Shown: piece by piece, positions 37,431 to 52,839 of the stretch
Numbering within the stretch: the stretch's first letter is position 1
Layout of the letters: each line of letters opens with the position of its first letter
NCBI GenBank assembly: GCA_964490075.1
Contig: CAZBBK010000035.1
Coordinates: 1 to 60,282 of the forward strand
DNA from: an uncultured Gemmatimonadota bacterium
Lineage (GTDB): Bacteria; GCA-2686955
Reading direction: 5' to 3'
DNA length: 60,282 nt
Program-made: the position numbers and the translations under genes
The notes under the pieces: model-generated
The model's database searches: none
What the model saw: the letters and a program-made list of their open reading frames with translations, nothing else
What the model was told of the DNA's origin: nothing

Positions 37431-37934
37431 ATGGCAAAAACGGACCCGGCGAAGCTGAAGAAGGTGTCGGTCAGCCTGCCCTTCGGAATCGGCCGCGCCG
37501 AATGGGAGGCGGATCCGGCCGAGCGTCGTGCGGCCTGGTCGCTCTACGTCGAGCTCGTGACCCGCGTCGCGATCCAGCCGCTGGGGAACGATCAGGGGCT
37601 GGACCGCGAAGCCCTCTCCTCGCTACACACTTTGTTCGCAACGACGCGTGAGATCCTCAAGAGCGCCGGGCCGGATGTCGGCTCCGGACGAGAATCGGTC
37701 GGCGGCATCGCGATCGCCGTGCTCAATCGCGGCCTGCGCCCCTTCCTCGCCCACTGGCATCCTCTGCTCGATGAGTGGGAGGCAGAGCGAGATCCGGGCG
37801 TAGGAAGAAGAGACCACGAACGTGCCTGGCCGCGCCGAGAGGAGTTCCGGACGACGCTCGCCGAGCTGCGGCGGGAGCTGGAGGGGTACGCCGCGGCTCT
37901 GGCGGCGATTTGTGGTGGGGATGCGGGGTTGTGA
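37431..37934 (+). CDS. Conserved hypothetical protein, translationally coupled to DGR target 1
   Basis: 167 aa; AAWSLYVELVTR..REALSSLHTLF..LNRGLRPFLAHWHP; its TGA overlaps a GTG in frame with target 1. Confidence 0.75.
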   Translation: MAKTDPAKLKKVSVSLPFGIGRAEWEADPAERRAAWSLYVELVTRVAIQPLGNDQGLDREALSSLHTLFATTREILKSAGPDVGSGRESVGGIAIAVLNRGLRPFLAHWHPLLDEWEAERDPGVGRRDHERAWPRREEFRTTLAELRRELEGYAAALAAICGGDAGL

Positions 37935-40900
37935 GCAGCACCGGCCGTGCCCCCGGCGAGAGCGCTGATATGAGGGCGGAATCGGACAAGACCCGCATCT
38001 TCATCGCGTGGGACTCGGAGATTCCCAGCATTCGGCACAGCTTCGAGAGACTGCAGAAAAGCCCTCCCCCGGAATTCACGATCGAGGTGCTGGGGGTCGG
38101 TGGATCGGCCTATCACGGTGCCGTGCTCGAAGACACGCTGGAGCCGGCGATCGAGCGCGCCGATCGTGTGTTGGCCCTGGTGGATCGGCCCAATGCAAAC
38201 ATGGGCTTCGAGCTCGGCCTCGCGCTGGGGCGGCGCAAACCCGCGGCGATTGCTCACGCGGGACTGGACCTGCCGAGCTGGCTGGAGCTCGCGCCCTTCA
38301 GCGGTCACCTCGTATGCCCGGGCGGCGAAATCGAGAAGCTCAGGAAGATCATCGTCGATCGAGGCACCGACGAGCGGCCGTGGATCCAGGCGCCCGCCGA
38401 TCCGCCCCCCGGTGACGCGACGATCCTGCTCTGCCCCAGGGCGGGCGACGGCAGCGCGGTCCGTGAGCACCTGGCCGATGTTTTCGGCGACTGGAATCTA
38501 CTGGAGCTGCGGAGCTGGTCGATCCGCGACCTGACGCGGAAGCTCGCCGGCGTCCGCCGCGTGGTCTGGGTCATCACCACGCCGCCGCAGGGCAGCATTC
38601 GCGACGGTGAAGAGAACGCCTGCGCGTCGGTGGTCGCGGGTTTCGCATACGGTCGCGGCATCGAGCTGCATGTCATGCGCAGCGACGAGTCCCGGAGCAT
38701 CCTCGACGTGGCCAATCTCGGAGTGGAGTTCAGCTCGCTGGACGATCTGGTCGAGCAGCTCGCCGAGCGCACCGCGACGACCGCTGAAACCGCTGGAAGG
38801 CTCGAGGGGCAGCCCGCCCTCGTCTCCCGCTGGCGGGCCCACTGCCTGCGTGTCCACCGCGAGATCCCGATCGTGGGCTATCGGGATCACAAGAAGTTCA
38901 TTCTCGACATCGAGAAGATCTACGTGCCGCTCGCGATCTCGTCGATGGAGGCGCTGAGGACACCGCACGGCTCGGTGAATCGAGAAAGCTGGAGCGAAGA
39001 CGAGCTCGTGAGTCAGCGGGCGGACGTTGGCGTCGATGGCGCATTTTGTCATCTCGAGAAGCAGATCGCCGAAGGGCAGCCTCTGCGCGGCCTGTCGATC
39101 GTTGGGGACCCCGGCAGTGGCAAGACAACACTCTTACAGCACATCTTCTGCAAAGTGAGCCGACAAGGCTCGGCAGCGGTCGGGCTTCCCGAAGGGCTGA
39201 CGCCGGTGTTGCTGCGCTTCTCGCGCCTCCGCGCCGACGGATTGGGTGCAAGCAGTCTCGTCGATCTCGCCGAGCAGGAAGCGAAGCTGAATGGGCATGA
39301 GGGGGCCGGCCGCGCGCTATTGGCTGATTCCTCTCGCGCTTTGCTCTTCCTGCTCGACGGACTCGACGAGGTGCGCGACGAAGCGACTCGGATCGAAGTG
39401 GCCGATTGGCTCTGCGACGAAGCTCTGCGCTGGGAGAATTCGCGTTTCGTGGCAACCTGTCGCTACGCGTCCTGGCGTAAGCCTGCCGGTCGACTCGGAG
39501 GCCGTTTCTTCCCCTTCGAAGTGCTGCGTTTCGGACGCGACGACGCCGCGGATTATGTGCGCCAGTGGTTCTCCGCGGTGGTGAGCGCACAGCGAGGCCC
39601 CGAGGAATCGCCCGACGCCGCGCTGTCGCGTGCCACCGAAAAAGCGGAACGCTTGTTGGAGGCGATGAACGACCCCGAGCGCCCCCTGCATTCGTCGCTC
39701 TGGAAGATGACACGCAACCCACTTCTGCTCTCGACGATCTGTCTCGTACACCATGCGCGCGAGGGGCTACCCGACTCCCGTGCGGAGCTTTACGACGAAA
39801 GCCTGGGGCTGCTGATCGAAACCTGGGGGGAGCAGCACCAAAGTGGGCGCGGGCTTCCCTACCGATCCGCCAGTAGAGTGTTGCAGCCCCTGGCGTGGGC
39901 GATGCAGGAATCGCTGGACCGGGCGGACACATCGAAAGAGATCTCGAGAGCGAGGCTCTTGGAGCTGATCGCTCCACCCCTGGAGGGTCGTCCTCGCGGT
40001 TTGGAGGGGATGGAGCCAAGCGAATTCCTGGATCGCATCGCCCGCGAGATCGGGGTGCTCGTGAGCCCGGATTTCGAGCGCTATCAGTTCTTGCATCTGA
40101 CCTTCCAGGAGTACCTGGCGGCCTGCGACGCGCGCACCCGTGGCGACGCCGCGGGGCTCGCCGAGCGCCTGGGCCAAGATCGCTGGCGCGAGCCGATTCT
40201 GCTCTCGATGTCGCTCGACGGCATCTTCGTGCCCTTCATGCGCGCGGCCCTCGCGGGAGCGATCGAGGCCCACCGGGAGATACTCGGTCGTTGCCTGGAC
40301 GAGGCCCGCGCGATCGAAGATTCGCCTTTCGTTGAAGTGCTGGCACGAGAGAGCGAGATTCTGGAGGGGCGAGGTCGGCCGGAAGGCATACGCCTGAGCC
40401 CCGGAGCGCTCGCGGCTCTCTTGAGGCTCTTCGTGGGGCGAGATCGACCAGGGATCGCCGCCGCCGCGAAGCCCCTGATGAACCACCCGGATCGTGAGGT
40501 GGCAGCGCTCGCGGCTCAGCTTACGGGGATCTCGGAAGAGCCGGCGGTGTCGCCGGAAGAGGAGCGCGCTGGAGGAGAGCTGTGGCGGGAACCCACGTCC
40601 GGCATGAGCTTCGTCTGGGTGCGGGCGGGGGAGCTATGGATGGGATCGTCGTGCACCGAGGGTGAAGAGGGCTACGATCCCGAGGCGGCCTCCGTTGAAG
40701 AACCGCGCCACCGGGTCGAGATCTCGCGAGGCTTTTGGCTGGGGCAGTATCCGGTGACGAACGCGGAATACCGGCGCTTCGTCGACTCGACCGATCAACC
40801 GGAGCCGGAGAGCTTTCGGCGGGAGCGCTTCGGAAAGGACCGCCAACCGGTGACGGGGGTCAGTTGGGAGAATGCCCGACGTTTCTGTGAATGGCTGAGC

Positions 40901-41341
40901 GCCGAGCTGCCCTCCGGTCATGGTCCGATCGAGCTGCCGACGGAGGCGGAGTGGGAATGGGCGGCTCGAGGCGAAGATGGACGGAAGTACCCTTGGGGAA
41001 GCAGTCCACCGCCGAGCGTGGAACGGGCCATCTTCGGTCGAGGTGCACCAGACGCGGTCGGCGAGCGTCCACTGGGGGCCGGCCCCTTCGGTGCACAGGA
41101 CCAGGCGGGCAACGTCTGGGAATGGTGCGCGGATCGGTATGGCGCGTATTCGGCCGAGCCTCAGGTCGATCCAACAGGACCGGCCTCGGGCGCTGCCGGC
41201 GTGCTTCGCGGGGGCTCCTGGATCGACGTTCCCAGGAACCTGCGCTGCGCCGGCCGGCTCAGGAGCGCTCCCGGGTACCGGCTCGACGTCATCGGCTTCC
41301 GCGTCGTGTGCCGTGTTCCCCGCCAGCGCGTGTCTTCTTGA
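37931..41341 (+). CDS. DGR target 1: tandem NDT/TIR-like domains + NACHT NTPase + FGE-sulfatase (CLec) domain with VR1
   Basis: IERADRVLALVDRPNANMGFELGLALGRRKP; Walker A GDPGSGKTT; Walker B LLDGLDEV; NPLLL; FLHLTFQEYLAA; YPVTNAEY, LPTEAEWEWAARG, GNVWEWC, RGGSW. Start is GTG 37931 or ATG 37970. Confidence 0.93.
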   Translation: MSSTGRAPGESADMRAESDKTRIFIAWDSEIPSIRHSFERLQKSPPPEFTIEVLGVGGSAYHGAVLEDTLEPAIERADRVLALVDRPNANMGFELGLALGRRKPAAIAHAGLDLPSWLELAPFSGHLVCPGGEIEKLRKIIVDRGTDERPWIQAPADPPPGDATILLCPRAGDGSAVREHLADVFGDWNLLELRSWSIRDLTRKLAGVRRVVWVITTPPQGSIRDGEENACASVVAGFAYGRGIELHVMRSDESRSILDVANLGVEFSSLDDLVEQLAERTATTAETAGRLEGQPALVSRWRAHCLRVHREIPIVGYRDHKKFILDIEKIYVPLAISSMEALRTPHGSVNRESWSEDELVSQRADVGVDGAFCHLEKQIAEGQPLRGLSIVGDPGSGKTTLLQHIFCKVSRQGSAAVGLPEGLTPVLLRFSRLRADGLGASSLVDLAEQEAKLNGHEGAGRALLADSSRALLFLLDGLDEVRDEATRIEVADWLCDEALRWENSRFVATCRYASWRKPAGRLGGRFFPFEVLRFGRDDAADYVRQWFSAVVSAQRGPEESPDAALSRATEKAERLLEAMNDPERPLHSSLWKMTRNPLLLSTICLVHHAREGLPDSRAELYDESLGLLIETWGEQHQSGRGLPYRSASRVLQPLAWAMQESLDRADTSKEISRARLLELIAPPLEGRPRGLEGMEPSEFLDRIAREIGVLVSPDFERYQFLHLTFQEYLAACDARTRGDAAGLAERLGQDRWREPILLSMSLDGIFVPFMRAALAGAIEAHREILGRCLDEARAIEDSPFVEVLARESEILEGRGRPEGIRLSPGALAALLRLFVGRDRPGIAAAAKPLMNHPDREVAALAAQLTGISEEPAVSPEEERAGGELWREPTSGMSFVWVRAGELWMGSSCTEGEEGYDPEAASVEEPRHRVEISRGFWLGQYPVTNAEYRRFVDSTDQPEPESFRRERFGKDRQPVTGVSWENARRFCEWLSAELPSGHGPIELPTEAEWEWAARGEDGRKYPWGSSPPPSVERAIFGRGAPDAVGERPLGAGPFGAQDQAGNVWEWCADRYGAYSAEPQVDPTGPASGAAGVLRGGSWIDVPRNLRCAGRLRSAPGYRLDVIGFRVVCRVPRQRVSS
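41189..41330 (+). repeat. DGR variable repeat VR1
   Basis: 142-bp ungapped match to TR; 16 mismatches, 15 at TR adenines and one C>G near the 5' edge. Confidence 0.96.
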
Positions 41342-41380
41342 CTTGTTGCTTCTTGGCAATTGTCCGGCGCGAAGCGCCGG
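41331..41380 (+). other. IMH-like element and hairpin downstream of VR1
   Basis: TGTCTTCTTGAC and TCTTGGCnnTTGTCC are shared with the VR2 flank but not TR; followed by a CCGGCGC-GAA-GCGCCGG stem-loop (41364-41380). Confidence 0.75.
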
Positions 41381-41438
41381 CGAAATTCGGGCCGCGTCGA
41401 CACGGCACGACAGATTTGTCACCTTGGCGACAGGAGTG

Positions 41439-42422
41439 TCAACCGAACTCCCAGCACGCCCGCAGGGCCGCCAGCGAAGCACGGAGCTTCTCGGGTTCAC
41501 CTGCGCGCCGAGCGATCAGGGCTGGGGCTCGCGCCCGCATTCGAGGCCCGGGCTCGATGCCGCCGGGCGAGACGCGGTAGCCGAGGTAGAGATGTGAGCC
41601 ACTGCATCGCCGCGGCCGCGCGCCGGGGTCTTTGAGCTCGAGACTTCGCTGCTCGCGCAACCAATTGGCGATCCGATCGCGTAACCCGAGCAGGTCGCTC
41701 CGGCCATTGGCGAAGAGCGTGAAGTCGTCCATGTAGCGTTGATAGGACGGCACACGCAGCACGCGCTGAGCGTAGTGATCGAGACCATCGAGATAGAGGT
41801 TGCCCCACCACTGGCTGGTCAGATTGCCGATCGGCAGCCCGCGGCCGGTGGGGTTCGGCTGATCCCAGCCGAGCCAATCGACGACATCGGCGCGATCGTA
41901 GAGCCCCGCGCCGCTCGCGATGATCCGGCCGAGAAGGCCACGCAGCTTCGGTTCCGGGAGCCTGCGGAAGAGCAATGCTCGCAGGATCGCCCGGTCGACC
42001 GAGTAGAAATAGCGCCGGATGTCGAGCGACAACACCCATCGGTAGCGGCGCAGCTCTCCACGGAACCGCAGCACGGCCCGGTGGCTGCCGCGCCCCTCGA
42101 GGCAGGCGTAGCTCTGGTCACTGAAGCTCCGGTTCAGGCGGGGCGCGAGCACGCGATGCAGAGCGTGGTGCACGATCCGATCTCGAACCGGCGCCGCCGC
42201 CACCACGCGCCGCTTCGGGTCCCTGATCTTGATGAGTCGGTAGCTCCCTGGACGGTAATCGCCGAATGCCAGCTCGTTCGCCAGGCGCAGCACATGGCTC
42301 GGTGCATCGATCGCGAGCTCCGCCACGCGCGGCCGTCTCTGCTTGCCGGACGCGAACTCCCGCCAGGCTCGCCACACATTCGCGGGATCGACGATCTCAT
42401 CCCAGACACGAAACGACTTCAC
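41439..42422 (-). CDS. DGR reverse transcriptase
   Basis: KRRVVAAAPVRDRIVHHAL, SYACLEGRGSH, LDIRRYFYSVD, GLPIGNLTSQ (DGR-type SQ), YQRYMDDF, YLGY; about 327 aa, no maturase or endonuclease tail. The GTG start is inferred. Confidence 0.96.
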   Translation of the reverse strand: MKSFRVWDEIVDPANVWRAWREFASGKQRRPRVAELAIDAPSHVLRLANELAFGDYRPGSYRLIKIRDPKRRVVAAAPVRDRIVHHALHRVLAPRLNRSFSDQSYACLEGRGSHRAVLRFRGELRRYRWVLSLDIRRYFYSVDRAILRALLFRRLPEPKLRGLLGRIIASGAGLYDRADVVDWLGWDQPNPTGRGLPIGNLTSQWWGNLYLDGLDHYAQRVLRVPSYQRYMDDFTLFANGRSDLLGLRDRIANWLREQRSLELKDPGARPRRCSGSHLYLGYRVSPGGIEPGPRMRARAPALIARRAGEPEKLRASLAALRACWEFG

Positions 42423-42544
42423 GGCGAAGAGGAGCGCCCGCCCCGGCGGTCGCCGGGGCGGATCCCGGCTACTGGCGGGGGCGGGCTGAGCGCGGACGAA
42501 TCCGCCGGGCCACCTGCACGTGTCCGAGCCACGGCTCGGCGGGG

Positions 42545-42686
42545 CGTGTTGGCGGGGAACACGGCACACGACGCGGAAGCCGATGTTGTCGTTCCGGTTC
42601 CCGGGATCGTTCCTGTTCCGGTTGGCGCAGCGCAGGTTCCTGGGATCGTTGATCCAGGAGCCCCCGCGAAGCACGCGGGCAGCGCC
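42545..42686 (-). repeat. DGR template repeat TR
   Basis: Lies between avd and RT; in the VR frame it reads GAARVLRGGSWINDPRNLRCANRNRNDPGNRNDNIGFRVVCRVPRQH, with 8 AAC codons and 26 adenines. Confidence 0.97.
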
Positions 42687-42714
42687 TTTTCATCGGTGGC
42701 CCGCGGCAACTCTA

Positions 42715-43044
42715 TCACCGCGCAGGAGCTGAGAGGCGGCGCAACCATCCGCCGAGCTGCCGGCCGATCTCGTCGAGCTCGCCCACGATGTAGAGCATCC
42801 GTCTCTCATCGAGCAGCCCCAGGTCGTGGGCCAGGCGAACGTGGACCCGGAGCAAAGCGTTGCACTCGTCGGCCTCTTCGACCCGTTGTTCCCGATCGAA
42901 GTTCTTGAGGGCGAGCACGATGTGATCGAGCAGGTCGAGGGCGCCACGATGAATCCTGTCGCCGATGGGGCTCGAAGCCGGGATGGTATCGAGCATCCAG
43001 CGAGCGGCGGCGTAGGTCTGCACGAAGAGCGGTGCCTCTTTCAC
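42715..43044 (-). CDS. avd: DGR accessory variability determinant Avd (four-helix bundle)
   Basis: 109 aa; LLRVHVRLAHDLGLL..ELDEIGRQLGGWLR is the Avd-like motif; immediately upstream of TR; GTGA overlap with the upstream gene. Confidence 0.9.
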   Translation of the reverse strand: MKEAPLFVQTYAAARWMLDTIPASSPIGDRIHRGALDLLDHIVLALKNFDREQRVEEADECNALLRVHVRLAHDLGLLDERRMLYIVGELDEIGRQLGGWLRRLSAPAR

Positions 43045-43604
43045 CGGCGTTTTCGCCCTTCGCTTCGACGGATCAGGCCCGCGACAGCCGGCAGCAGCTC
43101 GTGCTCGATCAAGTCGGCGACGGCATCGGCCTTCTCGTCTTCGGAGAGCAGAGCGAGCGCGACCGCCCGGGCTGCTTCTTCGCGAGCGTCGCGGTAGGCG
43201 TCTACTTTCTGTCCATCGAGGAAACGGTGGCAGCCTCGGCTGACCGACACCAGGGAGCTCTCGAGAGCCGACGTCGAGCAGTGATCGGCGCCGAGCGCGT
43301 CCCTGCACGCTCTGTATGCCTCGCGCCCCTTCTGAAAGGCGGCCATCTCGCGAACGCTGTAACGGCGCTTGCCGGTCTCGAGACGGGGGCCGAGCGCCGT
43401 CTCGACGACATCGGCAAGCTCGTTGCGCTTGCGCTCGAGTGCGCGGCGCTGGGCCGCCGTGAGCGGTAGATCGTCGCGCTCGATGATCCAACGGCCGCCC
43501 TCCTTCTTGGCGGCCAGTCGCCGCGTGCGGATCAGGTAGCGCACCTGGCGGGGGCTTTTGCCGAGCAGTTGCGCGGCCTGGGCGAGGGAGAGCTGCATGG
43601 GCAT
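43041..43604 (-). CDS. Excisionase-like HTH (HTH_17) fused to a helical-bundle domain
   Basis: LSLAQAAQLLGKSPRQVRYLIRTRRLAAKKEGGRWII followed by YSVREMAAFQKG and a helical region. Confidence 0.75.
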   Translation of the reverse strand: MPMQLSLAQAAQLLGKSPRQVRYLIRTRRLAAKKEGGRWIIERDDLPLTAAQRRALERKRNELADVVETALGPRLETGKRRYSVREMAAFQKGREAYRACRDALGADHCSTSALESSLVSVSRGCHRFLDGQKVDAYRDAREEAARAVALALLSEDEKADAVADLIEHELLPAVAGLIRRSEGRKRR

Positions 43605-43823
43605 ATCGATCGGTGTCAACGGAGTGACGGAAGATGGCGGTGTGTCATCGGTGAGTGTCAAAATGCGGCGTTGTGGTTGCAGGACGTGGTCGCGAGTGGC
43701 CAAATGTGTCGTTTTTGCTGCCGATCGTCAAGGCTCTAGCAGGATAGTGCCAAATATGGTCTTCGTGATCGATCGATTGTCAAGAGGGGAACAAGAGAAG
43801 ACCAAAGGACAACAGCCAAGACG

Positions 43824-46800
43824 TCAAGAAGACACGTGCTGGCGGGGAACACGGCACACGACGCGGAAGCCGATGTCGCCGCTCCGGCGCCCGGGATCGC
43901 CCCCGTACCGGCCGGCGCAGCGCAGGGCCCTGGGAACGCTGACCCAGGAGCCCCCGCGAAGCACGCGGGCAGCGCCCGGCGGTCCGGCGTGGGAGCACTC
44001 GTCGGCATCCTGCCAAGATCGGTCTTCTAGTTCGCGCCACGCGTCATCGCACCATTCCCAGACGTTGCCAGCGAGGTCCACCAGGCGTCCACGCCTACCG
44101 CCGGGAAAAGCCCCGACGGGCGTGACGTGGCCGATCTCTTCGCTGTGGTTCGCCTGGGCCCGATCTCCTTGCTCCGGCTCCTCATTCCCCCACGGAAAGA
44201 GCGATCCCTCGGCCCCCCGCGCCGCGAACTCCCATTCGGTTTCAGAGGGCAGATCGATCTGCCACCCATCCGGCATGCCCCAGATCCTCTTCGCGCTCGC
44301 CCAGCGGCAGAATGCCTTGGCCTCCCACCACGAGACGCCCCAGACCGGCCGCGAGGGGTTGAGCTTCTGCTTCGTCCAATCGCGCGGCTCCGTCCACTCG
44401 CGGGTCTTCTGGATCTCCGGCGTGGCGTCGCCCCACCATTCGTCGCACGAGTAGCCACCCCCATCCACGAAGGGCGCGAAGTCCATCACCGTCACCGGAC
44501 GCCACAGCATTCGGAAGGGCGGCAGCCTCACCCGATGCGCGGGAGCACTCCGGAACGCGTCCGAGTCCCCACCCATCATGAACTCCCCCTCGAGCTCCAC
44601 CCAGGGATCTTCGTCGAAGCGGGGGTCCCCGAGCCGCCCCAAGGCGTCGAGCGCGCGAATGCGGTCCGACACTGACCAATCGCGACCGGTGGCGCGGAAC
44701 TCGGCCAGAAGCTCCGCGGGGAAACGATCGAGCAGCTCGTGGTTCTCGAAGTGCTGGCGGTACTCGGCGAGGCCGGTTGCGATCAGGGTCGGCAGGCGAC
44801 CGGGCGTTGGGTGGCGCTGCACGTCACCGATGCCGAGCGCGTGCTCGCGCAGTCGGGAAAGATAGGCCTGAGCTTTCGCCTGTGAGCCGTACACACCGAC
44901 CAGAAAGCCCAGCACGCGGTCCCATGCGGGATCGTCGACGTACGCTTGCTGCCCGCCTCTTGGTGACACGACGAGACGATCGGTCTCGTTGCTCACCGAA
45001 TCGGCGCTCTGACGGAGCACGCTGGCGGCCAGGTACTCCTGGAAGCTGCGGTGCCACGGCATCAGTACCGGATAGGAGTGCTCCTCTTTGTTCCGCTTCT
45101 CGAAACGGATGAGCCCGGTGTCGTCGGCGAGCTGATCAAGCAGAATCCCTGCCTCGGTGTGATCGGCGGCATGTTTCTTTTCGACGAGCAGCTCGCGCGC
45201 ATCGTGCACCGGCCACTCGGTCCCTCCCGCCGTCTGCGCGCTTGCGAACACCTGCTCGAGAATCTCACGCTTCTTGCTCGCGGGAAGGCCCTCGCGGGGT
45301 TTCGCCGCGCAGAGGATCTCGACGATCTGACCGTAGAGCTCGGCCAGCGAGTCGGGCAGCCGCTCCCCTTCGTTGAAGTAGACGAGCAGCGAGGCGACCA
45401 AGAGCAGAGGATTCTCCCAGATGATCAGTCCGGCTGCTTTCTCTCTGAGAGACGACACGGCGGTGAGGAACCGCGACTCTCGCTCGGTGCCGATGCCGTT
45501 GGCGATACACCAACGGCGGGTCAACGCGGCGGCCGCTTCCTGATCCAGGCGGGCGATGTCGAGCCGGCGCAAGCTCCCACCGAAACCGACCGAGCCGGTC
45601 TGCGCGGTCGGGCGGGTCGTCAGAATCAAGCGGGCCGCTGTGTCACCATCCACCGCTCCGCTCTCCGCCGCCCCGCGGAGGATCTGGACGACCTGGCCAC
45701 GGCGCTGCTCGTCGGGCACCTCGTCGAGAGCATCGACCAGCAGCAAGTAACGGCCGTTGCGCACCCCTTCGCTCAAGTCGGCTTCGTCGAAGCTCTCTCC
45801 CGTGGCCTCACGGATCTCCTTCTCGATCGCGTGGACCAGTGTGTCCATGCCGGGATCGCGGGCCCCGTTCATCTCGTCGCTGATCGCTCTGGCGCGGATC
45901 AGAATCGGGATCGGTAGCGATGAGTTGCCCGCGAAGGCATCGAGGTCGAGCTGGTGCTCGGGCGGGCTCTCGGCCCGGCGGGCGCGCGCCAGCACGTAGG
46001 CCACGTGCTGCAAGAGAACGGATTTGCCCGATCCCGCTTCGCCGACGATCACCAGCCGGCGGGCTCGGGCGTGCGAAAGCACCTGCTCCAGATAGGGCGC
46101 ACCGCGCTTCTCCGCCGCGCCCTCCTCTTTGCCGCCGCGCCGAGCCATCTCTTCGAGCGCGGCCTCTTTCGGCGCGGACTCGCCTTCGGCGGGATCACGC
46201 ACCACCAACCCACCCTTCTCGTCGAGCCAGCACCAGGCCGAATCGGCGCGCAGAGAGATGTACTGCTTGTCGCGCTGCAGGGACTTGTCGCCGGCGCGCG
46301 CCGCTAGGGGAGTGTCGGCCGGGCCGGTCGCCCAGAGGGCGATTCGTGCGCCGAGGTATTTGTCCTCCCACTCGTGCAGCGCGGTCGATTCTGGGAGGAC
46401 GACTCCCGGCGGCGGAGCGTCGCCGCTCACCCGACGAATCGCGCAAGACAGGGGCTCCTCGCGAGTGCTCTCACCGCAGACCAGCTCGCCGTCGGCTCCG
46501 TACTTCGCCTCTCGGGGGGAGCTTTCCAAGGTCAGAGCTCCGTCGGCGTCCCTCGATATCCGGCCCCACGAATAGCCGAACTCGCGCCGCTCATTGCTCG
46601 TAGCGTACCGCTCGAGACCACAAAGCGACGTGCCCTGAAGGTAGCGACGCTCCCGGCCCGAGGGGGCGACGATACGCTGAGTCCGCGTCTTGTGCCGATG
46701 GCCGAAGAGGCAGGCGACGAAGCGGCTCGGCGGGTAGATGTCGCTCTCGAAGAGATTCTCGTGCCGGTCGGTGAGCCACCGCGGCGGATGGTGCATGAGT

Positions 46801-47540
46801 AGGATCGCGGCATCGTGCTCTCCGGCCCAATCGCTGAGAACGATGTCGCCGAATTGCTCCGATTCGACCGCCAGAAGACGATCGTAGCCACGTCCACCAG
46901 GACTGTTCTCATCGTCGGTGAGCTGAAGCCAGGTGGAGTTGAGTCCGCAGACTCCGAGCTTGAAGCCGGCGGGGGCATCGATCGATGCGACAAAGTCGCC
47001 GGGCAGGCGTCCCAGCTCGAAGTCGAGCTCTCGGTTGTCCCAGTCGCGCTTGATCTGTTCCCACCATTGCGCGTACGCCTCGAACGCACGCTCGAGCGGT
47101 TCGAGATAGTCGATCTCGGCGCCAATGAAGCCCTGCCGCACGTCGTCATCGCCGTGATAGTCCCGAAAGGTCTTCACGGCCATCGACTTCGGCCGGGGCC
47201 GCTCGAGATCGTGATTCCCGGGCACCGGAACCACCACCGGATCGCCCCCAACCGCCTCCTTCACCTCTTCCAAGGTCTCGTCGACCAGCCTGTACTCCGC
47301 TTCGATCCCCTTGAACGCCAGATCCCCGGTGAAGACGATCAGGTCTGGCGGGCCGTGCTCCTCCGCCTGCGCCTTCATATCCGCGAGCAGCGTCGCTTTC
47401 GCGTTCCGCCACCGCGCCTCACCCCCCGGCGCCCCCCGGTGCAGATCGGAAAGATGGAGCCAACGGATCTCGCGCGCCTTGGTCCGGCCCCGTTTCCTCG
47501 GTCGGTTCTTCCGCTTGGGTCGATGGCTTCTTTTAGTCAT
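43824..47540 (-). CDS. DGR target 2: calcineurin-like metallophosphoesterase + NACHT NTPase + FGE-sulfatase (CLec) domain with VR2
   Basis: HLSDLH, TGDLA, VPGNHD, MHHP, FGHRH; Walker A GEAGSGKS; Walker B LVDALDEV; NPLLL; HRSFQEYLAA; LPSETEWEFAARG, GNVWEWC, RGGSW. Confidence 0.95.
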   Translation of the reverse strand: MTKRSHRPKRKNRPRKRGRTKAREIRWLHLSDLHRGAPGGEARWRNAKATLLADMKAQAEEHGPPDLIVFTGDLAFKGIEAEYRLVDETLEEVKEAVGGDPVVVPVPGNHDLERPRPKSMAVKTFRDYHGDDDVRQGFIGAEIDYLEPLERAFEAYAQWWEQIKRDWDNRELDFELGRLPGDFVASIDAPAGFKLGVCGLNSTWLQLTDDENSPGGRGYDRLLAVESEQFGDIVLSDWAGEHDAAILLMHHPPRWLTDRHENLFESDIYPPSRFVACLFGHRHKTRTQRIVAPSGRERRYLQGTSLCGLERYATSNERREFGYSWGRISRDADGALTLESSPREAKYGADGELVCGESTREEPLSCAIRRVSGDAPPPGVVLPESTALHEWEDKYLGARIALWATGPADTPLAARAGDKSLQRDKQYISLRADSAWCWLDEKGGLVVRDPAEGESAPKEAALEEMARRGGKEEGAAEKRGAPYLEQVLSHARARRLVIVGEAGSGKSVLLQHVAYVLARARRAESPPEHQLDLDAFAGNSSLPIPILIRARAISDEMNGARDPGMDTLVHAIEKEIREATGESFDEADLSEGVRNGRYLLLVDALDEVPDEQRRGQVVQILRGAAESGAVDGDTAARLILTTRPTAQTGSVGFGGSLRRLDIARLDQEAAAALTRRWCIANGIGTERESRFLTAVSSLREKAAGLIIWENPLLLVASLLVYFNEGERLPDSLAELYGQIVEILCAAKPREGLPASKKREILEQVFASAQTAGGTEWPVHDARELLVEKKHAADHTEAGILLDQLADDTGLIRFEKRNKEEHSYPVLMPWHRSFQEYLAASVLRQSADSVSNETDRLVVSPRGGQQAYVDDPAWDRVLGFLVGVYGSQAKAQAYLSRLREHALGIGDVQRHPTPGRLPTLIATGLAEYRQHFENHELLDRFPAELLAEFRATGRDWSVSDRIRALDALGRLGDPRFDEDPWVELEGEFMMGGDSDAFRSAPAHRVRLPPFRMLWRPVTVMDFAPFVDGGGYSCDEWWGDATPEIQKTREWTEPRDWTKQKLNPSRPVWGVSWWEAKAFCRWASAKRIWGMPDGWQIDLPSETEWEFAARGAEGSLFPWGNEEPEQGDRAQANHSEEIGHVTPVGAFPGGRRGRLVDLAGNVWEWCDDAWRELEDRSWQDADECSHAGPPGAARVLRGGSWVSVPRALRCAGRYGGDPGRRSGDIGFRVVCRVPRQHVSS
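43835..43976 (-). repeat. DGR variable repeat VR2
   Basis: 142-bp ungapped direct match to TR (offset 1290 bp); 17 mismatches, all at TR adenines. Confidence 0.97.
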
Positions 47541-47543
47541 GGA

Positions 47544-47780
47544 TCACCGAAGAAAAACAAATTCGCGCTCTCTTCCCTCAGAATCGCGCACGATCAACAT
47601 GTTGTCGTTGTTGACGACCACTTCCCACAGCTTCTCATATACGGCGAGAGAGTGCCTGATGACTTCGGACAGACTATCGGCGTCCGTCGTGATCTGAAGC
47701 GCATCGAGACGCTCTCTCACCGCGGGGGAGAGCTCTAGATTGAGTCGCACTTTCTTGACCTTGCGATTCGGTCTACTCAT
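47544..47780 (-). CDS. Ribbon-helix-helix (CopG-like) regulator
   Basis: VRLNLELSPAVRERLDALQ..SLSEVIRHSLAVY; stops 3 bp before the target 2 ATG. Confidence 0.75.
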   Translation of the reverse strand: MSRPNRKVKKVRLNLELSPAVRERLDALQITTDADSLSEVIRHSLAVYEKLWEVVVNNDNMLIVRDSEGREREFVFLR

Positions 47781-48438: not shown

Positions 48439-50622
48439 TTACGACGCGCCTTGCAGGAAGCCCCTCAGCAACTCCCGGCCGACGCCAGGATAGAACCCGG
48501 GGTCCTGAACCAGGGCGTTGCCGATGGCGCAGCCCCAGTTGCAGTGGCACTTGTCGGTCCCGAGGTGCTTCTCCGCGAATGACGACATCGCTTCGCCCGC
48601 GAGCACCTGCCTCAGGTCATAGCCCTGCTCCCGCAGGTTGCCGACCGATTCCTGCAGAGGCTCACAGGGGAGCACCTCCCCGTAGGGACCGATCACCGCG
48701 ATCTTCTGGCCCGCGCCACAGATGCTCCCCAGGTCTCCACCCTTTTGGATCATCTCGAGTTTGCCGTCCATGGCGCGCTTGATGGCATTGAATAGCCGGT
48801 ACCGGACCCCCCTGTAGCCCCTCTGGTCGGTCAGCCGGTAGATTTCGCGGGCGAGAGCGAGATAGCGTTCCGGGTCGACCGCCATGTTCTTGTCCTTGAA
48901 GTTGCCGTGCAGGGGGTTGAGGCTGACCCGGTCGCATTCCACGTCGCGGACCAGGTGCTCGAGGAAACCCTCCAGTTGGTCGACGTTCTCCGACGAACAG
49001 GTCACGACGAACTTGATGCTCAGATTGTCCCGCCGCCTCGCGAGAGGCAGCACGGCCTGGTGGGTCTCCATCACACGTGCGTAGGTGGCCCGGGAACCGC
49101 GTATCCCGTCGTGCACCTCTGGTGGTCCGTCGAGCGACAGATGAAGGTCGAAGTTGGTCGAGGGATTGCGCCTGGAGAGGACCTCGAAGGTGCGCTCGAC
49201 GCGGTCCGGGAAGGAGCCGTTCGTGGGGATGGAAACATAGACGGGATCGCCCCCGTCGATGAACGCCTGGACCAGATCGCCAACGTCGTCCCTCAGGAAA
49301 GGTTCGCCGCCCGAAAGGGAGAGATAGGTAATGGGAGGGATCGACGCGGCGATCCGCCGGACCTCCTCCGACGAAAGCTCGCCGGACTGTCTTGCGTCGT
49401 TGATCTCGTCGAGATAGAAGCACATCGGGCATCGTGCATTGCATCGAGCCGTGACGAAGTAGATGAGCCACTGCGGGAACCGGCGGGGCCAAAGTCGGAT
49501 GGGCACGATCTGACGCAGCACGGCCCAACGGGGCTGGACGATCTCCTTCCCCACGAAGGTGCCACCACGGTCCCGGTAGCGGAAGCGTCTGTATCTGTGG
49601 GCGGTCGGTTTCCCCAGACGGTAAAAGGGCCCCAGGATCAGCCCGCTCCAGAAGCCGAGCATCGTGGCCCCCACGCACAATGCAAGGCAGATACCGGAGA
49701 CGAGCACGGGTCCCGGCCGTTTCGACGGCGAGACCGAATAGCCGCCCCACGAGACGAGGGCCACCAGGCCCGCCAGGGTCATCCCGGACAGGGTGCCGAT
49801 GAGCACGAGGCGCGTTCCTTCGGAGGTGATCAACCCGAGCAGACAGGCGACCAGGAGGATGACCAGAAGGCCTGCTGCCGCTACCACCCCTACTTGGCGC
49901 AGATAGAGCTCCGGGAACTGCCATGTGGAGAGGCCGCCGTACCATCTCTGGCGAAAATACTGGTGCATGAGCGGCCACAGCAGCGGCCGCTTGTAGTGGG
50001 CCGCCCGAACTTCCGGGTCGTTCCAGAGCTCGAAGCCGATCCGCCAGGCGACATAGAAGAACTCCGCGTCATCCACCCAGTAGTAGGCAACCTCGTTGAA
50101 GCCGCCGACGCTCTCCCATACGCGGCGTTTCATCGCCACGTTGCAGAGGGAAACTTCATAGAAGGGAACTCGCTCCCTGGTCGGGTTGGCGAGGGTCTTC
50201 TTCATGCTGAACAAAGGAGAGCAGACTATCCCGTTGGCAGCCGTTTGCCTGAAATCTTCGGAATAGGGGAGGTCGCTGGGTCCCGTGACGACATCGGCTC
50301 CATCATCGAGCGCATGAAGCACTCGATCGACCCAGTGCGGCTCGAGGCGAACGTCGTCGTCGACGAAGGCGAGGTACTCCGTGGACCCGGCCGCTCCGAC
50401 CCCCACGTTCCTCTTGGCGCTCGGGTGCGGGCTCGTAGAGACCTGGGTCTTGACCGCGATCAGAGACGAGGCGTACCGGACCGGGCTGTCTGTAACCAGA
50501 ATGAGCTCGCAGAGCCCGGGAGCGGTCTGCCCTTCGAGGCTCCGGATCAAGGGACCGATGAACTCCGGGCCCCGGCTGACCGGCACGATGATGCTCAGGC
50601 GGGGCACGCTGGACGGAGTCAT
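48439..50622 (-). CDS. Fusion protein: GT2 glycosyltransferase + TM region + radical SAM/SPASM-like domain
   Basis: LSIIVPV, AFVDDDV, VGGFNE, then VTARCNARCPMC, SGGEPFLR, CGAG..PCE..CHCNWGC; ATGA overlap with the upstream gene. Confidence 0.85.
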   Translation of the reverse strand: MTPSSVPRLSIIVPVSRGPEFIGPLIRSLEGQTAPGLCELILVTDSPVRYASSLIAVKTQVSTSPHPSAKRNVGVGAAGSTEYLAFVDDDVRLEPHWVDRVLHALDDGADVVTGPSDLPYSEDFRQTAANGIVCSPLFSMKKTLANPTRERVPFYEVSLCNVAMKRRVWESVGGFNEVAYYWVDDAEFFYVAWRIGFELWNDPEVRAAHYKRPLLWPLMHQYFRQRWYGGLSTWQFPELYLRQVGVVAAAGLLVILLVACLLGLITSEGTRLVLIGTLSGMTLAGLVALVSWGGYSVSPSKRPGPVLVSGICLALCVGATMLGFWSGLILGPFYRLGKPTAHRYRRFRYRDRGGTFVGKEIVQPRWAVLRQIVPIRLWPRRFPQWLIYFVTARCNARCPMCFYLDEINDARQSGELSSEEVRRIAASIPPITYLSLSGGEPFLRDDVGDLVQAFIDGGDPVYVSIPTNGSFPDRVERTFEVLSRRNPSTNFDLHLSLDGPPEVHDGIRGSRATYARVMETHQAVLPLARRRDNLSIKFVVTCSSENVDQLEGFLEHLVRDVECDRVSLNPLHGNFKDKNMAVDPERYLALAREIYRLTDQRGYRGVRYRLFNAIKRAMDGKLEMIQKGGDLGSICGAGQKIAVIGPYGEVLPCEPLQESVGNLREQGYDLRQVLAGEAMSSFAEKHLGTDKCHCNWGCAIGNALVQDPGFYPGVGRELLRGFLQGAS

Positions 50623-52100
50623 GGCATGCTGGCAGGGAAGAAACCCCCACCGCTCAGCAAGCGCTGAGTGAGCAGAGACAGGAGCTTCGCGTCCCAGGTC
50701 ATCGTCAGCGCGTGAGCCTCCCAGCGGGAACGGTATCGGTGGCTGAAGAACCGGAGGACTCCGGTTGCGAGCCGGGGCGCTCCGAGCCCGGTCAGAAGCC
50801 TCCTTCCATCGATCAGCTTCGAGGTGACCATCAGAAACTCCATGTGAGACTTGTCCTGAATCCACGGCGCCGAGATGTTGTGCCGGTTGAATCGGCTCCA
50901 CCCTTCCAGACTCTCCGGTGGCTGGAAACCGTTCTCCAGAGCCAGGTCGTACAGGGCCGACCCGGGATAGGGGACGAACACGTAGAAGCCGGCCACGTGT
51001 GCGTTCGGGTTGGAGGCCGTCAGGTCGAGGATAAGATTCACGGTGGACTTCAGCTCTTCCTCCGTCTCCGTCGGAAAACCCATCATGAAGTTGTAGGTCG
51101 CCTGGATGCCTGTGCTCGCGAGGGCCGCGTTGGCGGCGCGGTACTGCTCCACCGTCTCTTGTTTCTTGACCAGCTCGAGGATCCTGTTGGAGCCGCTCTC
51201 GAGCCCCAGCTGGAGGGAACGCATACCGTTTCTCTCGAGCATCGGGAGGTCGAGATGGAGCAGGTCGTCCATGCGGGTCTGGGCGTACCAGTCGAAAGCG
51301 CCGCCGATCCTTTCGGCGATCCGGGCGCCGCGCTTCCGGTCTACGAAGAACTCTTCGTCATGGAATTCTATGGCATCCAAGCCGTAGCGGTCCTTCAACG
51401 CGATCGTGCGCTCGGCAACCATGTCGGGATCCATGCGCCGCCACCTCCTGTTGGACAGGACCGGCTGGCAGCAGAAGGTACAGGCGTACGGACACCCGGA
51501 GGATGTGATGAACGGCATACTCCGCACCTTGCGCCCGAAGAACAGGTTTCCCGAGACGTAGTTCTCGACGTCAACGAGATCGTACGGGATCTCTGGCGCG
51601 GTCGTGGGATCGACGAAGTCGTATCCCGACCCCTGGACCGTGACCGAGTCTTCCGTCTTGAAGGCGATGTTGGAGATCGCCCTCCAATCGCGCCGGGCTC
51701 TGAAGGCGTCCACCAGGCGCCGGAAGGTGGCCTCTCCCTCGCCCATCACCACGATGTCGACCAGGGGGTGGCGGGCCGTCTGCTCGGGAAGGAGTGTCGG
51801 GTGGTTCCCCCCCCAAACAATGGGCACTTCCGGGGCAATCTGCCGGGTCCACGCGGCGGCCCTCAGCCCGTAGTGGATCTGCGTGCCGGTCATCGAGGAA
51901 ATGCCGACGCACAGAGTGTCCCCCGTCAAGTGCTTGCGGATCGACTCCCGCCAGTGGGGATCGGTCCGCTGGTCGACGATCGCCACCTCGTAGTCGTCGG
52001 TCAGCGTAGACGCGACGGTGAGGACCGACAAAGGCAGCCACACCGTGACCCCCCTGACGTCCAAGCCGGTGACGGGATAGACGAGGATGACGTCCGCCAC
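50619..52100 (-). CDS. B12-binding radical SAM protein
   Basis: WGGNHPT, GEGEAT, SSGCPYACTFC, GLESGS, FMMGFPTET, PYPGS. Confidence 0.93.
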   Translation of the reverse strand: MADVILVYPVTGLDVRGVTVWLPLSVLTVASTLTDDYEVAIVDQRTDPHWRESIRKHLTGDTLCVGISSMTGTQIHYGLRAAAWTRQIAPEVPIVWGGNHPTLLPEQTARHPLVDIVVMGEGEATFRRLVDAFRARRDWRAISNIAFKTEDSVTVQGSGYDFVDPTTAPEIPYDLVDVENYVSGNLFFGRKVRSMPFITSSGCPYACTFCCQPVLSNRRWRRMDPDMVAERTIALKDRYGLDAIEFHDEEFFVDRKRGARIAERIGGAFDWYAQTRMDDLLHLDLPMLERNGMRSLQLGLESGSNRILELVKKQETVEQYRAANAALASTGIQATYNFMMGFPTETEEELKSTVNLILDLTASNPNAHVAGFYVFVPYPGSALYDLALENGFQPPESLEGWSRFNRHNISAPWIQDKSHMEFLMVTSKLIDGRRLLTGLGAPRLATGVLRFFSHRYRSRWEAHALTMTWDAKLLSLLTQRLLSGGGFFPASMP

Positions 52101-52839
52101 AGAATCTCCAGTTCCGGGTCGATCGAGCACGGTCCCGGGGGATCAGGATCCCCGAACGCTCCGCGGGATAGCCTTCGAGAGGATCTAGCGGAGGAACCGC
52201 GGTTACTCGTCAACTTTCTCCGCTAGCGCGCGGTCTTTGAGCTCGAGGGCCTCCGCCTCCCTCCGGCAGTCGGCGCAGACCGAGCCCAGGCAGACGTCCG
52301 CCGGCGGCCCTCCCTGTTCCAGCGGATGGCGCTCTGGATGACCGTCCCGGCGCAGCCGTTCTTGTCTTCGCAGAGCGCGTTGTCTCAATGATACCACTCC
52401 TTCATGCCCATCTACCACCGAGTCGGCTTCCGAAGGATTCCGGAGCACCCACCGGTTCTTGCCCAGATTCTGGTATCGGAGGGCCGCACGCCGCCGAGCG
52501 ATCCCCGGGAGAGGTCTCCGCTCGGGACGACGTAGGTGGCCCCGCTGGGACAGGCCCGCCTCGTCCGGAGCACGCAGTTCTTCCGTATTCCGCCAGTCAT
52601 CCCCCGCGCCCTGGAGAAGCCTCGCCCCCCGCAGCACCTCCCGGTACCGAAGCTCCGTCGTCGGACTCATCTCCAATAGTCTGCCCACTTCTCGGCAGCA
52701 TTCGCCCAGGCGCCGAGCCACGAGGCCCGCGTGCTGGACATCCACATCCTCCGCCGAGCCCCCGGGGACGAGCGCAGCCGGAACCAAGCCGTCCCGCTCG
52801 ACATCGGGCGGGACACCCCGGAAGTTCCGAGGACAGCTT

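Follow-up and report, generated by a model that had tools for sequence, protein, structure and literature searches.

A diversity-generating retroelement (DGR) that is complete and active in nature is present in contig CAZBBK010000035.1 of the assembly GCA_964490075.1, from an uncultured Gemmatimonadota bacterium; all 60,282 nt of the analysed stretch are called the window below. In addition to avd and the reverse transcriptase (RT) gene, this DGR contains a further gene, hth-4HB, whose product combines an N-terminal helix-turn-helix (HTH) domain with a C-terminal helical bundle. The gene is real and conserved, and in the 38 distinct loci examined it is found in DGRs only. We describe a DGR lineage with a conserved third, putative DNA-binding component beside Avd and RT. 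Arrays of short half-sites sit beside both variable repeats (VRs) of the cassette, and we propose, giving it about an even chance of being right, that the hth-4HB protein is a stoichiometric, DNA-binding partner of the DGR core, whose winged HTH would occupy these arrays and whose bundle would oligomerise, dock on the acidic Avd-RT-RNA complex, or do both, placing the machinery at the VR ends.

On the minus strand the cassette runs in the order target 2, hth-4HB, avd, template repeat (TR) and RT, and target 1 converges on it from the plus strand. The coordinates of its elements in the window are the following.

43041..43604, minus strand: hth-4HB gene, with a stop-free translation of 187 aa; a basic protein, isoelectric point (pI) 9.9.
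42715..43044, minus strand: avd, encoding a 109-aa Avd four-helix bundle of pI 6.08; GTG start.
42545..42686, minus strand: TR, 142 nt long, its coding strand containing 26 adenines; located by repeat finding.
41439..~42404, minus strand: DGR RT, RVT_1 at 4.5e-14 (Pfam); start position approximate.
43835..43976, minus strand: VR2, at the 3' end of target 2; 88% identical to TR.
43824..47540, minus strand: target 2, a Metallophos domain, a NACHT/STAND NTPase and a C-terminal FGE-sulfatase domain of the C-type lectin (CLec) kind.
41189..41330, plus strand: VR1, an inverted copy at the 3' end of target 1; 89% identical to TR.
37775..41341, plus strand: target 1, a NACHT NTPase with a C-terminal FGE-sulfatase (CLec) domain; start codon approximate.
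41364..41380, plus strand: GC hairpin, CCGGCGC-GAA-GCGCCGG, downstream of VR1.
43605..43823, minus strand: array A, the 219-nt spacer from the target-2 stop to the hth-4HB start.
41396..41443, plus strand: array B, with five GACA/TGTC half-sites in the stretch that separates the RT stop from the VR1 hairpin.

The hth-4HB gene was expected, from an earlier sequence-only reading, to lie between VR2 and avd with its stop codon overlapping the avd start, and both the open reading frames (ORFs) and the repeat coordinates agree with this: its TGA (43043-43041) overlaps the avd GTG (43044-43042), giving GTGA on the minus strand. The longest open frame reaches a TTG at 43703 (220 aa); since the homologues begin at residue 3 (MxLSL), the start is assigned to the ATG at 43604 or 43598. 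A word-index search yielded 25 homologues, and an exhaustive search of 1.84 billion cluster representatives yielded 609 at E<=1e-3, of which 324 pass E<=1e-10 and 30 pass E<=1e-30. Of the 609, the best 150 are almost all about 185 aa long and match over their whole length. Since full-length homologues are so numerous in both searches, hth-4HB is not a chance ORF.

Genomic context was compiled from contig scans (7 genome loci and 24 metagenome loci) and from five host genomes with 18 family matches. The tallies below refer to a set of 38 distinct loci (gene near full length in 29, truncated in 9), from which loci that match the HTH alone (L007, L030, L031, L042), near-duplicates (L009 and L012, near-identical to L006 and L011), repeated entries (L034-L038, the same places as L001-L006) and the window itself (L032, L033, L052-L054) were left out. 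A CLec target ends just upstream of the gene in 18 of the 19 near-full-length loci with at least 500 nt available (the miss is L013), as it does in all seven truncated copies with enough upstream DNA, and 17 of the 18 family matches in the five host genomes directly follow a CLec target. Downstream, avd is found in 23 of 26 near-full-length loci with enough DNA (the misses are L005, where it is N-masked and still visible as an ORF, L040 and L044), and RT in 20 of 21 loci with enough DNA (the miss is L040), so that the co-occurrence of homologues with DGR RTs, proposed earlier as a check, is confirmed. An overlap of 4 nt between the hth stop and the avd start is seen again in 12 of the 17 distinct loci measured, with starts chosen by script. 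The homologues therefore hold the same cassette position, and the suggestion of an additional DGR accessory gene that is coupled to avd is upheld.

Degenerate loci are also observed, several of the truncated copies among them. In L047, L048 and L051 avd, TR and RT are deleted and an hth stub is left between two converging CLec targets, the deletion ending inside the hth gene and not at the arrays; in L041, L044, L050 and P0159 a fusion joins the hth gene to what remains of RT. These degenerate loci occur in three large metagenome-assembled genomes. Among the long family members, examined for Avd fusions, none was found, and the HTH-RT deletion fusion P0159 was the only fusion. In L013 (1-1309), the expected place of the VR, immediately before the hairpin, arrays and hth, is taken by an avd fragment and a TR-like repeat with adenine-rich AAC codons, an arrangement suggestive of tandem cassettes or of a recombinant between TR and VR. 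In its own genome hth-4HB is single-copy, and no remote VRs were found there. The gene was found in none of the four other genomes (83-95% complete) of its 5-genome phylum, and the search of viral contigs gave one candidate stretch and no relatives of hth-4HB. None of the 14 large ORFs scanned in 26989-57397 has an integrase, transposase or phage domain at E<=1e-5.

The DGR identity of the cassette rests on an RT, a TR/VR pair with adenine-specific differences and CLec-type targets, the FGE-sulfatase domains of the two targets scoring 7.9e-49 and 2.2e-45 in Pfam. TR and VR2 have 17 mismatches, all 17 at TR adenines, and TR and VR1 have 16, of which 15 are at TR adenines. The avd ORF (42715-43044) matches the Pfam family bAvd at 2.1e-12 and 47.9 bits (cut-off 40) and the NCBIfam model DivGenRetAVD at 52.6 bits, under that model's cut-off of 80. 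The region is present as contigs in four marine-metagenome runs, all from one study. A contig from another sample that spans 43083-43978 has 16 differences, all within 43876-43943, inside VR2, and all 16 positions at which this second VR2 allele differs correspond to TR adenines; between samples VR2 varies, and no differences occur in the adjoining hth-4HB gene and spacer. Downstream of VR1 comes a GC hairpin of 7 bp with a GAA loop (41364-41380); on the VR2 side (43740-43835, minus strand) there is no comparable GC hairpin (fold z -1.0), only a ATCGATCGAT palindrome. VR2, though without a GC hairpin, is the repeat that differs between samples.

The N-terminal domain of hth-4HB is an excisionase/MerR-type winged HTH. 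Residues 5-46 match Pfam HTH_17 (PF12728) with E 6.3e-10 and 39.6 bits, above the cut-off of 27, as had been anticipated for an HTH_17/excisionase-type N-terminus, and the same family is matched in 143 of 144 family members. The NCBIfam excisionase domain TIGR01764 is reached at 20.8 bits, below its curated cut-off of 28.8, and the matches of hth-4HB to MerR_1 (E 0.13) and MerR (E 0.34) are likewise under cut-off; MerR is matched at E<=1 in 86 of the 144 family members, the best at 1.4e-5. The AlphaFold2 model, built with a 25-sequence alignment, has a mean pLDDT of 91.9 over the whole protein. It predicts a winged HTH with helices 7-14 and 18-26 and strands 33-35 and 38-42, a long helix 50-71 after the wing, then a lower-confidence linker that carries the conserved Y82-S83, and C-terminal helices 88-104, 109-126, 130-153 and 157-183. 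At least 90% conserved in the 144-sequence alignment are A11, R19, Q20, R22, Y23, A32, K34, W39 and L46 in the N-terminal part and G124, H126, K133, A140, R141, E167 and L177 in the C-terminal part; in the closer 25-sequence set Y82 and S83 are conserved too. The four-helix bundle (88-183) bears the conserved motif G124-C125-H126 together with K133, R141 and E167. The residues Y82, S83, G124, C125, H126 and K133 are expected to cluster close to the linker, at one bundle end, where they could form a ligand, metal or partner site.

The relationship of the C-terminal domain to Avd requires more caution. It was described in the sequence-only reading as resembling four-helix bundles of the Avd/23S-IVP type, and for the fold this description is partly supported, whereas sequence homology to Avd was not recovered. 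In a structural search of 48,161 PDB representative chains, the best match of the C-domain is Xcc0516 (2gsc), with Z 14.4, a root-mean-square deviation (rmsd) of 1.7 A over 98 of 113 residues and 11% identity, 2.4 above the first unrelated row at Z 12.0. BT_0352 (2rld; Z 11.1) and bAvd 8ub7_B (Z 11.1, rmsd 4.3 A, 103 residues) fall inside this generic helical-bundle background of about 12, and 4dwl is not among the 50 rows listed. The true Avd of the window (model pLDDT 96.1), used as a control, gives 2gsc at Z 16.3, 2rld at 15.7, 8ub7_B at 14.6 and 4dwl at 14.6, with the first unrelated row at 11.9; thus 2gsc is the top structural match common to both proteins. Foldseek against PDB also ranks 2gsc and 2rld first with probability 1.00 (TMt 0.73 for 2gsc) at E 0.03-0.14, and no C-domain match reaches E<=0.001. 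The language-model neighbours of residues 78-187 include 23S_rRNA_IVP clusters (10-14% of members) and a bAvd cluster, at scores of 0.82-0.83, a range reached by a third of shuffled proteins, and they serve as a lead.

Sequence and profile comparisons are negative for this domain. The C-terminal 140 residues have no Pfam match, and NCBIfam, PADLOC and PHROGs match the N-terminal HTH alone; a PDB profile search with the family matched only the excisionase 4j2n and nothing for the C-domain. There is no match of hth-4HB to bAvd (PF22296) at E<=1, bAvd and IVP are absent from the 25 most frequent Pfam families listed for the 144 family members, and similarity to Avd was found with neither the Pfam bAvd model (PF22296) nor NCBIfam NF033474. 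The Avd hallmark IGRQLGGW is missing, and hhalign puts the probability of a match between the C-domain and Avd at 0.4% with 17 linked Avds and at 0.3% with a set of 121, below 1% in both cases. As profile comparisons with Avd give no sequence homology, an 'Avd paralog' is backed at the fold level alone. We read the C-domain model as a four-helix bundle consistent with an Avd/IVP fold; the case for homology to Avd is about evenly balanced.

The candidate cis-acting sites are localized beside the VRs. TTGACA/TGTCAA occurs four times in the 60,282 nt, three times in array A (43614, 43656, 43778) and once in array B (41437-41442). The TTGAC(A/G) sites of array A lie, in plus-strand coordinates, at 43614-19, 43656-61, 43727-32 and 43778-83, and no GC hairpin is predicted in this array; the TTGACA of array B (41437), just beyond the VR1 GC hairpin and at the RT stop, is part of TTGACACTC, a 9-mer common to array A. 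At other loci the half-sites take locus-specific forms, namely TGTCGACA in L008 and L023, TGTTAACA in L014, L015, L016, L018 and L020, and TGACA-N4-TGTCA in L025 and L026. Enrichment was evaluated in 24 VR-flanking regions (4,034 nt) against 500 dinucleotide shuffles. TGACA/TGTCA is observed 64 times versus 12.7 +/- 3.3 in shuffled sequences (maximum 23 in 500 shuffles) and TGTYRACA 16 times versus 0.5 +/- 0.7, and the control 5-mer pairs TCAGA/TCTGA and ACAGT/ACTGT are not enriched in these regions. The density of TGACA/TGTCA is 15.6 per kb in the VR-flanking regions versus 1.0 per kb in the remaining locus DNA, and the flank consensus of the half-site is R-N-Y-GACA-M. Beyond the RT stop, loci in which a reversed target comes next have 3, 6, 2, 2, 8, 9 and 2 sites (L002, L004, L006, L011, L023, L025 and L029), and the loci without one have nearly none (0 in L001, 1 in L005).

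Spacings between neighbouring half-sites peak at 4, 8, 10-13 and 20-22 nt, classes that hold 86 of 130 pairs; under random placement the fraction is 0.35 +/- 0.04 (maximum 0.47). Such spacing in helical phase suggests binding on one face of the DNA, and the conservation of R19, Q20, R22 and Y23 in the recognition helix, each at least 90%, matches the conserved half-site core. The presence of phased arrays beside both VRs would fit the role suggested for hth-4HB by the sequence-only reading, in which it either regulates the cassette or tethers the RT-Avd-RNA complex to target DNA.

Another feature of this lineage is an apparent exchange of charge between the two small proteins. The Avd of the window has a pI of 6.08 versus 9.9 for hth-4HB, in which the N-part (11.4) is more basic than the C-part (8.6), and the median pI of 145 proteins of family length is also 9.9. 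Among the linked Avds, 14 of 17 have a pI below 7.1; the median of 120 Avd homologues (P0175-P0294) is 6.06, with 92 of 120 below 7.5 and five above 9. Avds in general were described by Wu et al. 2018 (PMC5758913) as having a pI of 9.5 +/- 0.7, the basic charge being tied to nucleic-acid binding. Judged by these calculated values, the linked Avd clade is acidic or neutral, and it is the HTH partner that carries the basic charge.

Linkage to DGRs, coupling to avd, the charge swap, the cis sites, the relatives of the N-domain and the activity of the DGR together support the proposed mechanism. We infer that the protein binds the arrays, that it contacts Avd or RT and that it takes part in targeting beyond regulation alone. 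In this reading hth-4HB opens an hth-avd-TR-RT operon, and its translation is coupled to that of Avd. Its MerR/Xis-type winged HTH would bind the helically phased arrays of YGACAM half-sites, which adjoin the 3' end of each VR on the far side of the spacer and, at VRs that have one, of the GC hairpin. The Avd-like bundle would then oligomerise along the array, dock onto the unusually acidic Avd-RT-RNA complex, or both, and as a net outcome the retrohoming machinery may be held at the VR ends. Binding at array A, which immediately precedes the operon, might in addition feed back on operon transcription. A more specific reading, possible but rather doubtful at present, makes hth-4HB the target-DNA recognition factor of this DGR lineage, choosing the genes that receive mutagenised cDNA; it would coat the phased YGACAM arrays and hold the acidic Avd-RT-cDNA complex via the Avd-like bundle.

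Several observations weigh against the proposed mechanism. An HTH followed by a helical, sensor-like domain is the usual layout of one-component transcription regulators, and the comparison of the C-domain with Avd profiles is, as given above, negative. The half-site statistics are post hoc, because the motif and the spacing classes were picked after inspection. TTGACA is the sigma-70 -35 consensus, and since array A stands where the operon promoter is expected, the array signal could partly reflect promoter elements, although a simple sigma-70 promoter scan of 41300-44000 returned no sites. The similarity of arrays A and B within a locus (8.9 versus 2.3 shared 8-mers) arises partly from duplicated hairpin flanks, and the hairpin-array arrangement is not universal, as VR2 has no GC hairpin. 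Finally, in the contrast of sites past the RT stop, the side without a reversed target consists of two loci.

The main alternative, which we consider possible though on the unlikely side, is that hth-4HB is a plain transcriptional autoregulator that represses or activates the operon from operators in array A, maybe in response to a signal perceived by the helical C-domain, and stands outside retrohoming. The layout of winged HTH plus helical domain with weak MerR matches in 86 of 144 members, the position as first gene of the operon with array A and its -35-like TTGACA boxes directly upstream of its own start, and the conserved patch Y82, S83, G124, C125, H126 and K133, which could be a ligand or redox site, are all in agreement with such a function, and the sites past RT could then modulate convergent transcription or termination. 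However, arrays are also present where RT and a target gene converge, a place in which an operon promoter would not be expected, and their occurrence follows that of the reversed target. The stop/start overlap with avd and the loss of basic charge from Avd fit a stoichiometric partner better than an autoregulator, and at the degenerate loci that lack avd, TR and RT the upstream region is retained with an hth stub between two targets.

A narrower variant of the DNA-binding-partner model is that hth-4HB is a true Avd paralogue, as the sequence-only reading had it, in mixed Avd pentamers, where its C-domain takes the place of at least one Avd protomer, the HTH is an added nucleic-acid-binding arm that makes up for the charge missing from the acidic Avd, and the arrays are incidental. 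The shared top match 2gsc, the IVP and bAvd clusters among the language-model neighbours and the Avd-like size of the C-domain (about 105 aa) are in line with it, and the charge swap and translational coupling fit it as well. Nevertheless, we hold it to be improbable, given the hhalign probabilities below 1% against both the 17 and the 121 Avds, the matches to bAvd (Z 11.1, rmsd 4.3 A) and 2rld (Z 11.1) that do not exceed the bundle background of 12.0, the language-model scores within the range of a third of shuffled proteins, and the missing IGRQLGGW. Very improbable, in our view, is a mobile-element remnant, in which hth-4HB would act as an Xis-like recombination directionality factor on a DGR core that can move or be deleted, with the arrays as its binding sites at the core ends. 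The N-domain does match excisionase families, arrays are present at both ends of the core, and core-deleted loci exist (L047, L048, L051); yet these deletions end inside the hth gene rather than at the arrays, the C-domain is kept in the same synteny across 38 loci, the 14 large ORFs contain no integrase or transposase domain, and viral contigs contain no relatives.

Like bAvd of phage BPP-1 (4dwl, 8ub7 chain B; PF22296), whose roughly 110 aa form an up-down four-helix bundle, the C-domain belongs to a bundle-type DGR accessory encoded beside avd; unlike bAvd, it has no detectable sequence or profile similarity to that family, superimposes at 4.3 A with a Z within the helical background, and is preceded by a winged HTH and marked by the conserved GCH motif, and hth-4HB occurs alongside Avd and does not replace it. 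The canonical BPP-1 cassette is mtd-avd-TR-brt. The S23 bundle proteins Xcc0516 (2gsc) and BT_0352 (2rld) are the best fold matches of the C-domain, as they are of the true Avd; unlike hth-4HB, they are stand-alone proteins without an HTH and with no known function or DGR link. The N-domain resembles the Pukovnik excisionase Xis gp37 (4j2n; 40% identity, TMt 0.72, profile E 4e-4) and matches Streptomyces BldC (6ama). Both of these bind repeated sites cooperatively, and repeated, phased DNA sites likewise lie close to hth-4HB, which in contrast to them extends into a fused helical bundle of 105 aa and resides in a retroelement operon with no integrase partner in the 14 large ORFs.

Within the DGR literature searched in full text, we found no description of the hth-4HB gene family. 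Wu et al. 2018 (PMC5758913) distinguish four DGR accessory classes, Avd, HRDC, MSL and CH1, and tentative PAG1-4. Like MSL and CH1, hth-4HB is a small gene kept in the DGR cassettes of one lineage; it differs from both in that, according to that paper, CH1 is acidic and occurs without avd and MSL is MutS-like. The main text of Wu et al. 2018 (PMC5758913), so far as it was available, mentions no HTH or excisionase accessory, and its supplementary tables might list a member. Doré et al. 2024 note an unspecified 'helix-turn-helix domain gene' at one locus, DGR 8, which might be of the same family. The main text of Roux et al. 2021 contains no mention of accessory, Avd, helix or DNA-binding proteins, and the hth-4HB family is not described in the accessible parts of Sharifi and Ye 2021, of the 2022 Mobile DNA review or of Kaur et al. 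2020.

Some further features of the region are given for completeness. The RT frame is open upstream through TR to 42674 (41439-42674, minus strand; a 411-aa ORF), and because this frame runs through TR, the ORF has a spurious FGE-sulfatase match at residues 2-36. The N-terminus of target 2 is a calcineurin-like phosphoesterase, and target 2 matches PADLOC PDC-S60 (2.2e-14); the N-terminal ~430 aa of target 1, about a third of the protein, are without a Pfam match. Directly upstream of target 2 and on the same strand lies a 78-aa ORF (47544-47780, minus strand) with no Pfam match at E<=1e-5. An 820-aa ORF (48439-50901, minus strand) combines a GT2 glycosyltransferase with a radical-SAM/SPASM domain, and a B12-binding radical-SAM enzyme (50619-52130, minus strand) adjoins it.

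To our knowledge, it is still unresolved how DGR cDNA finds and replaces the VR. A conserved, putative DNA-binding partner, a non-basic Avd and arrays at the side of the VRs make a testable model of how targets are marked or controlled. The accessory proteins Avd, HRDC, MSL and CH1 are not described as sequence-specific DNA binders, at least in the accessible parts of the DGR papers. If hth-4HB were indeed a recognition factor, it would offer a first grip, at the level of protein and DNA, on how cDNA is integrated during mutagenic retrohoming, along with a portable 'address label' for engineered DGRs; the arrays together with hth-4HB could be a targeting module for synthetic DGR mutagenesis. 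NACHT/STAND sensor-like proteins have been discussed as putative antigen sensors (Doré et al. 2024). Because the hth-4HB lineage diversifies such sensor-like proteins, its control is relevant to bacterial immunity. Overall, hth-4HB may help to explain how DGR cassettes find or control the genes that they rewrite.

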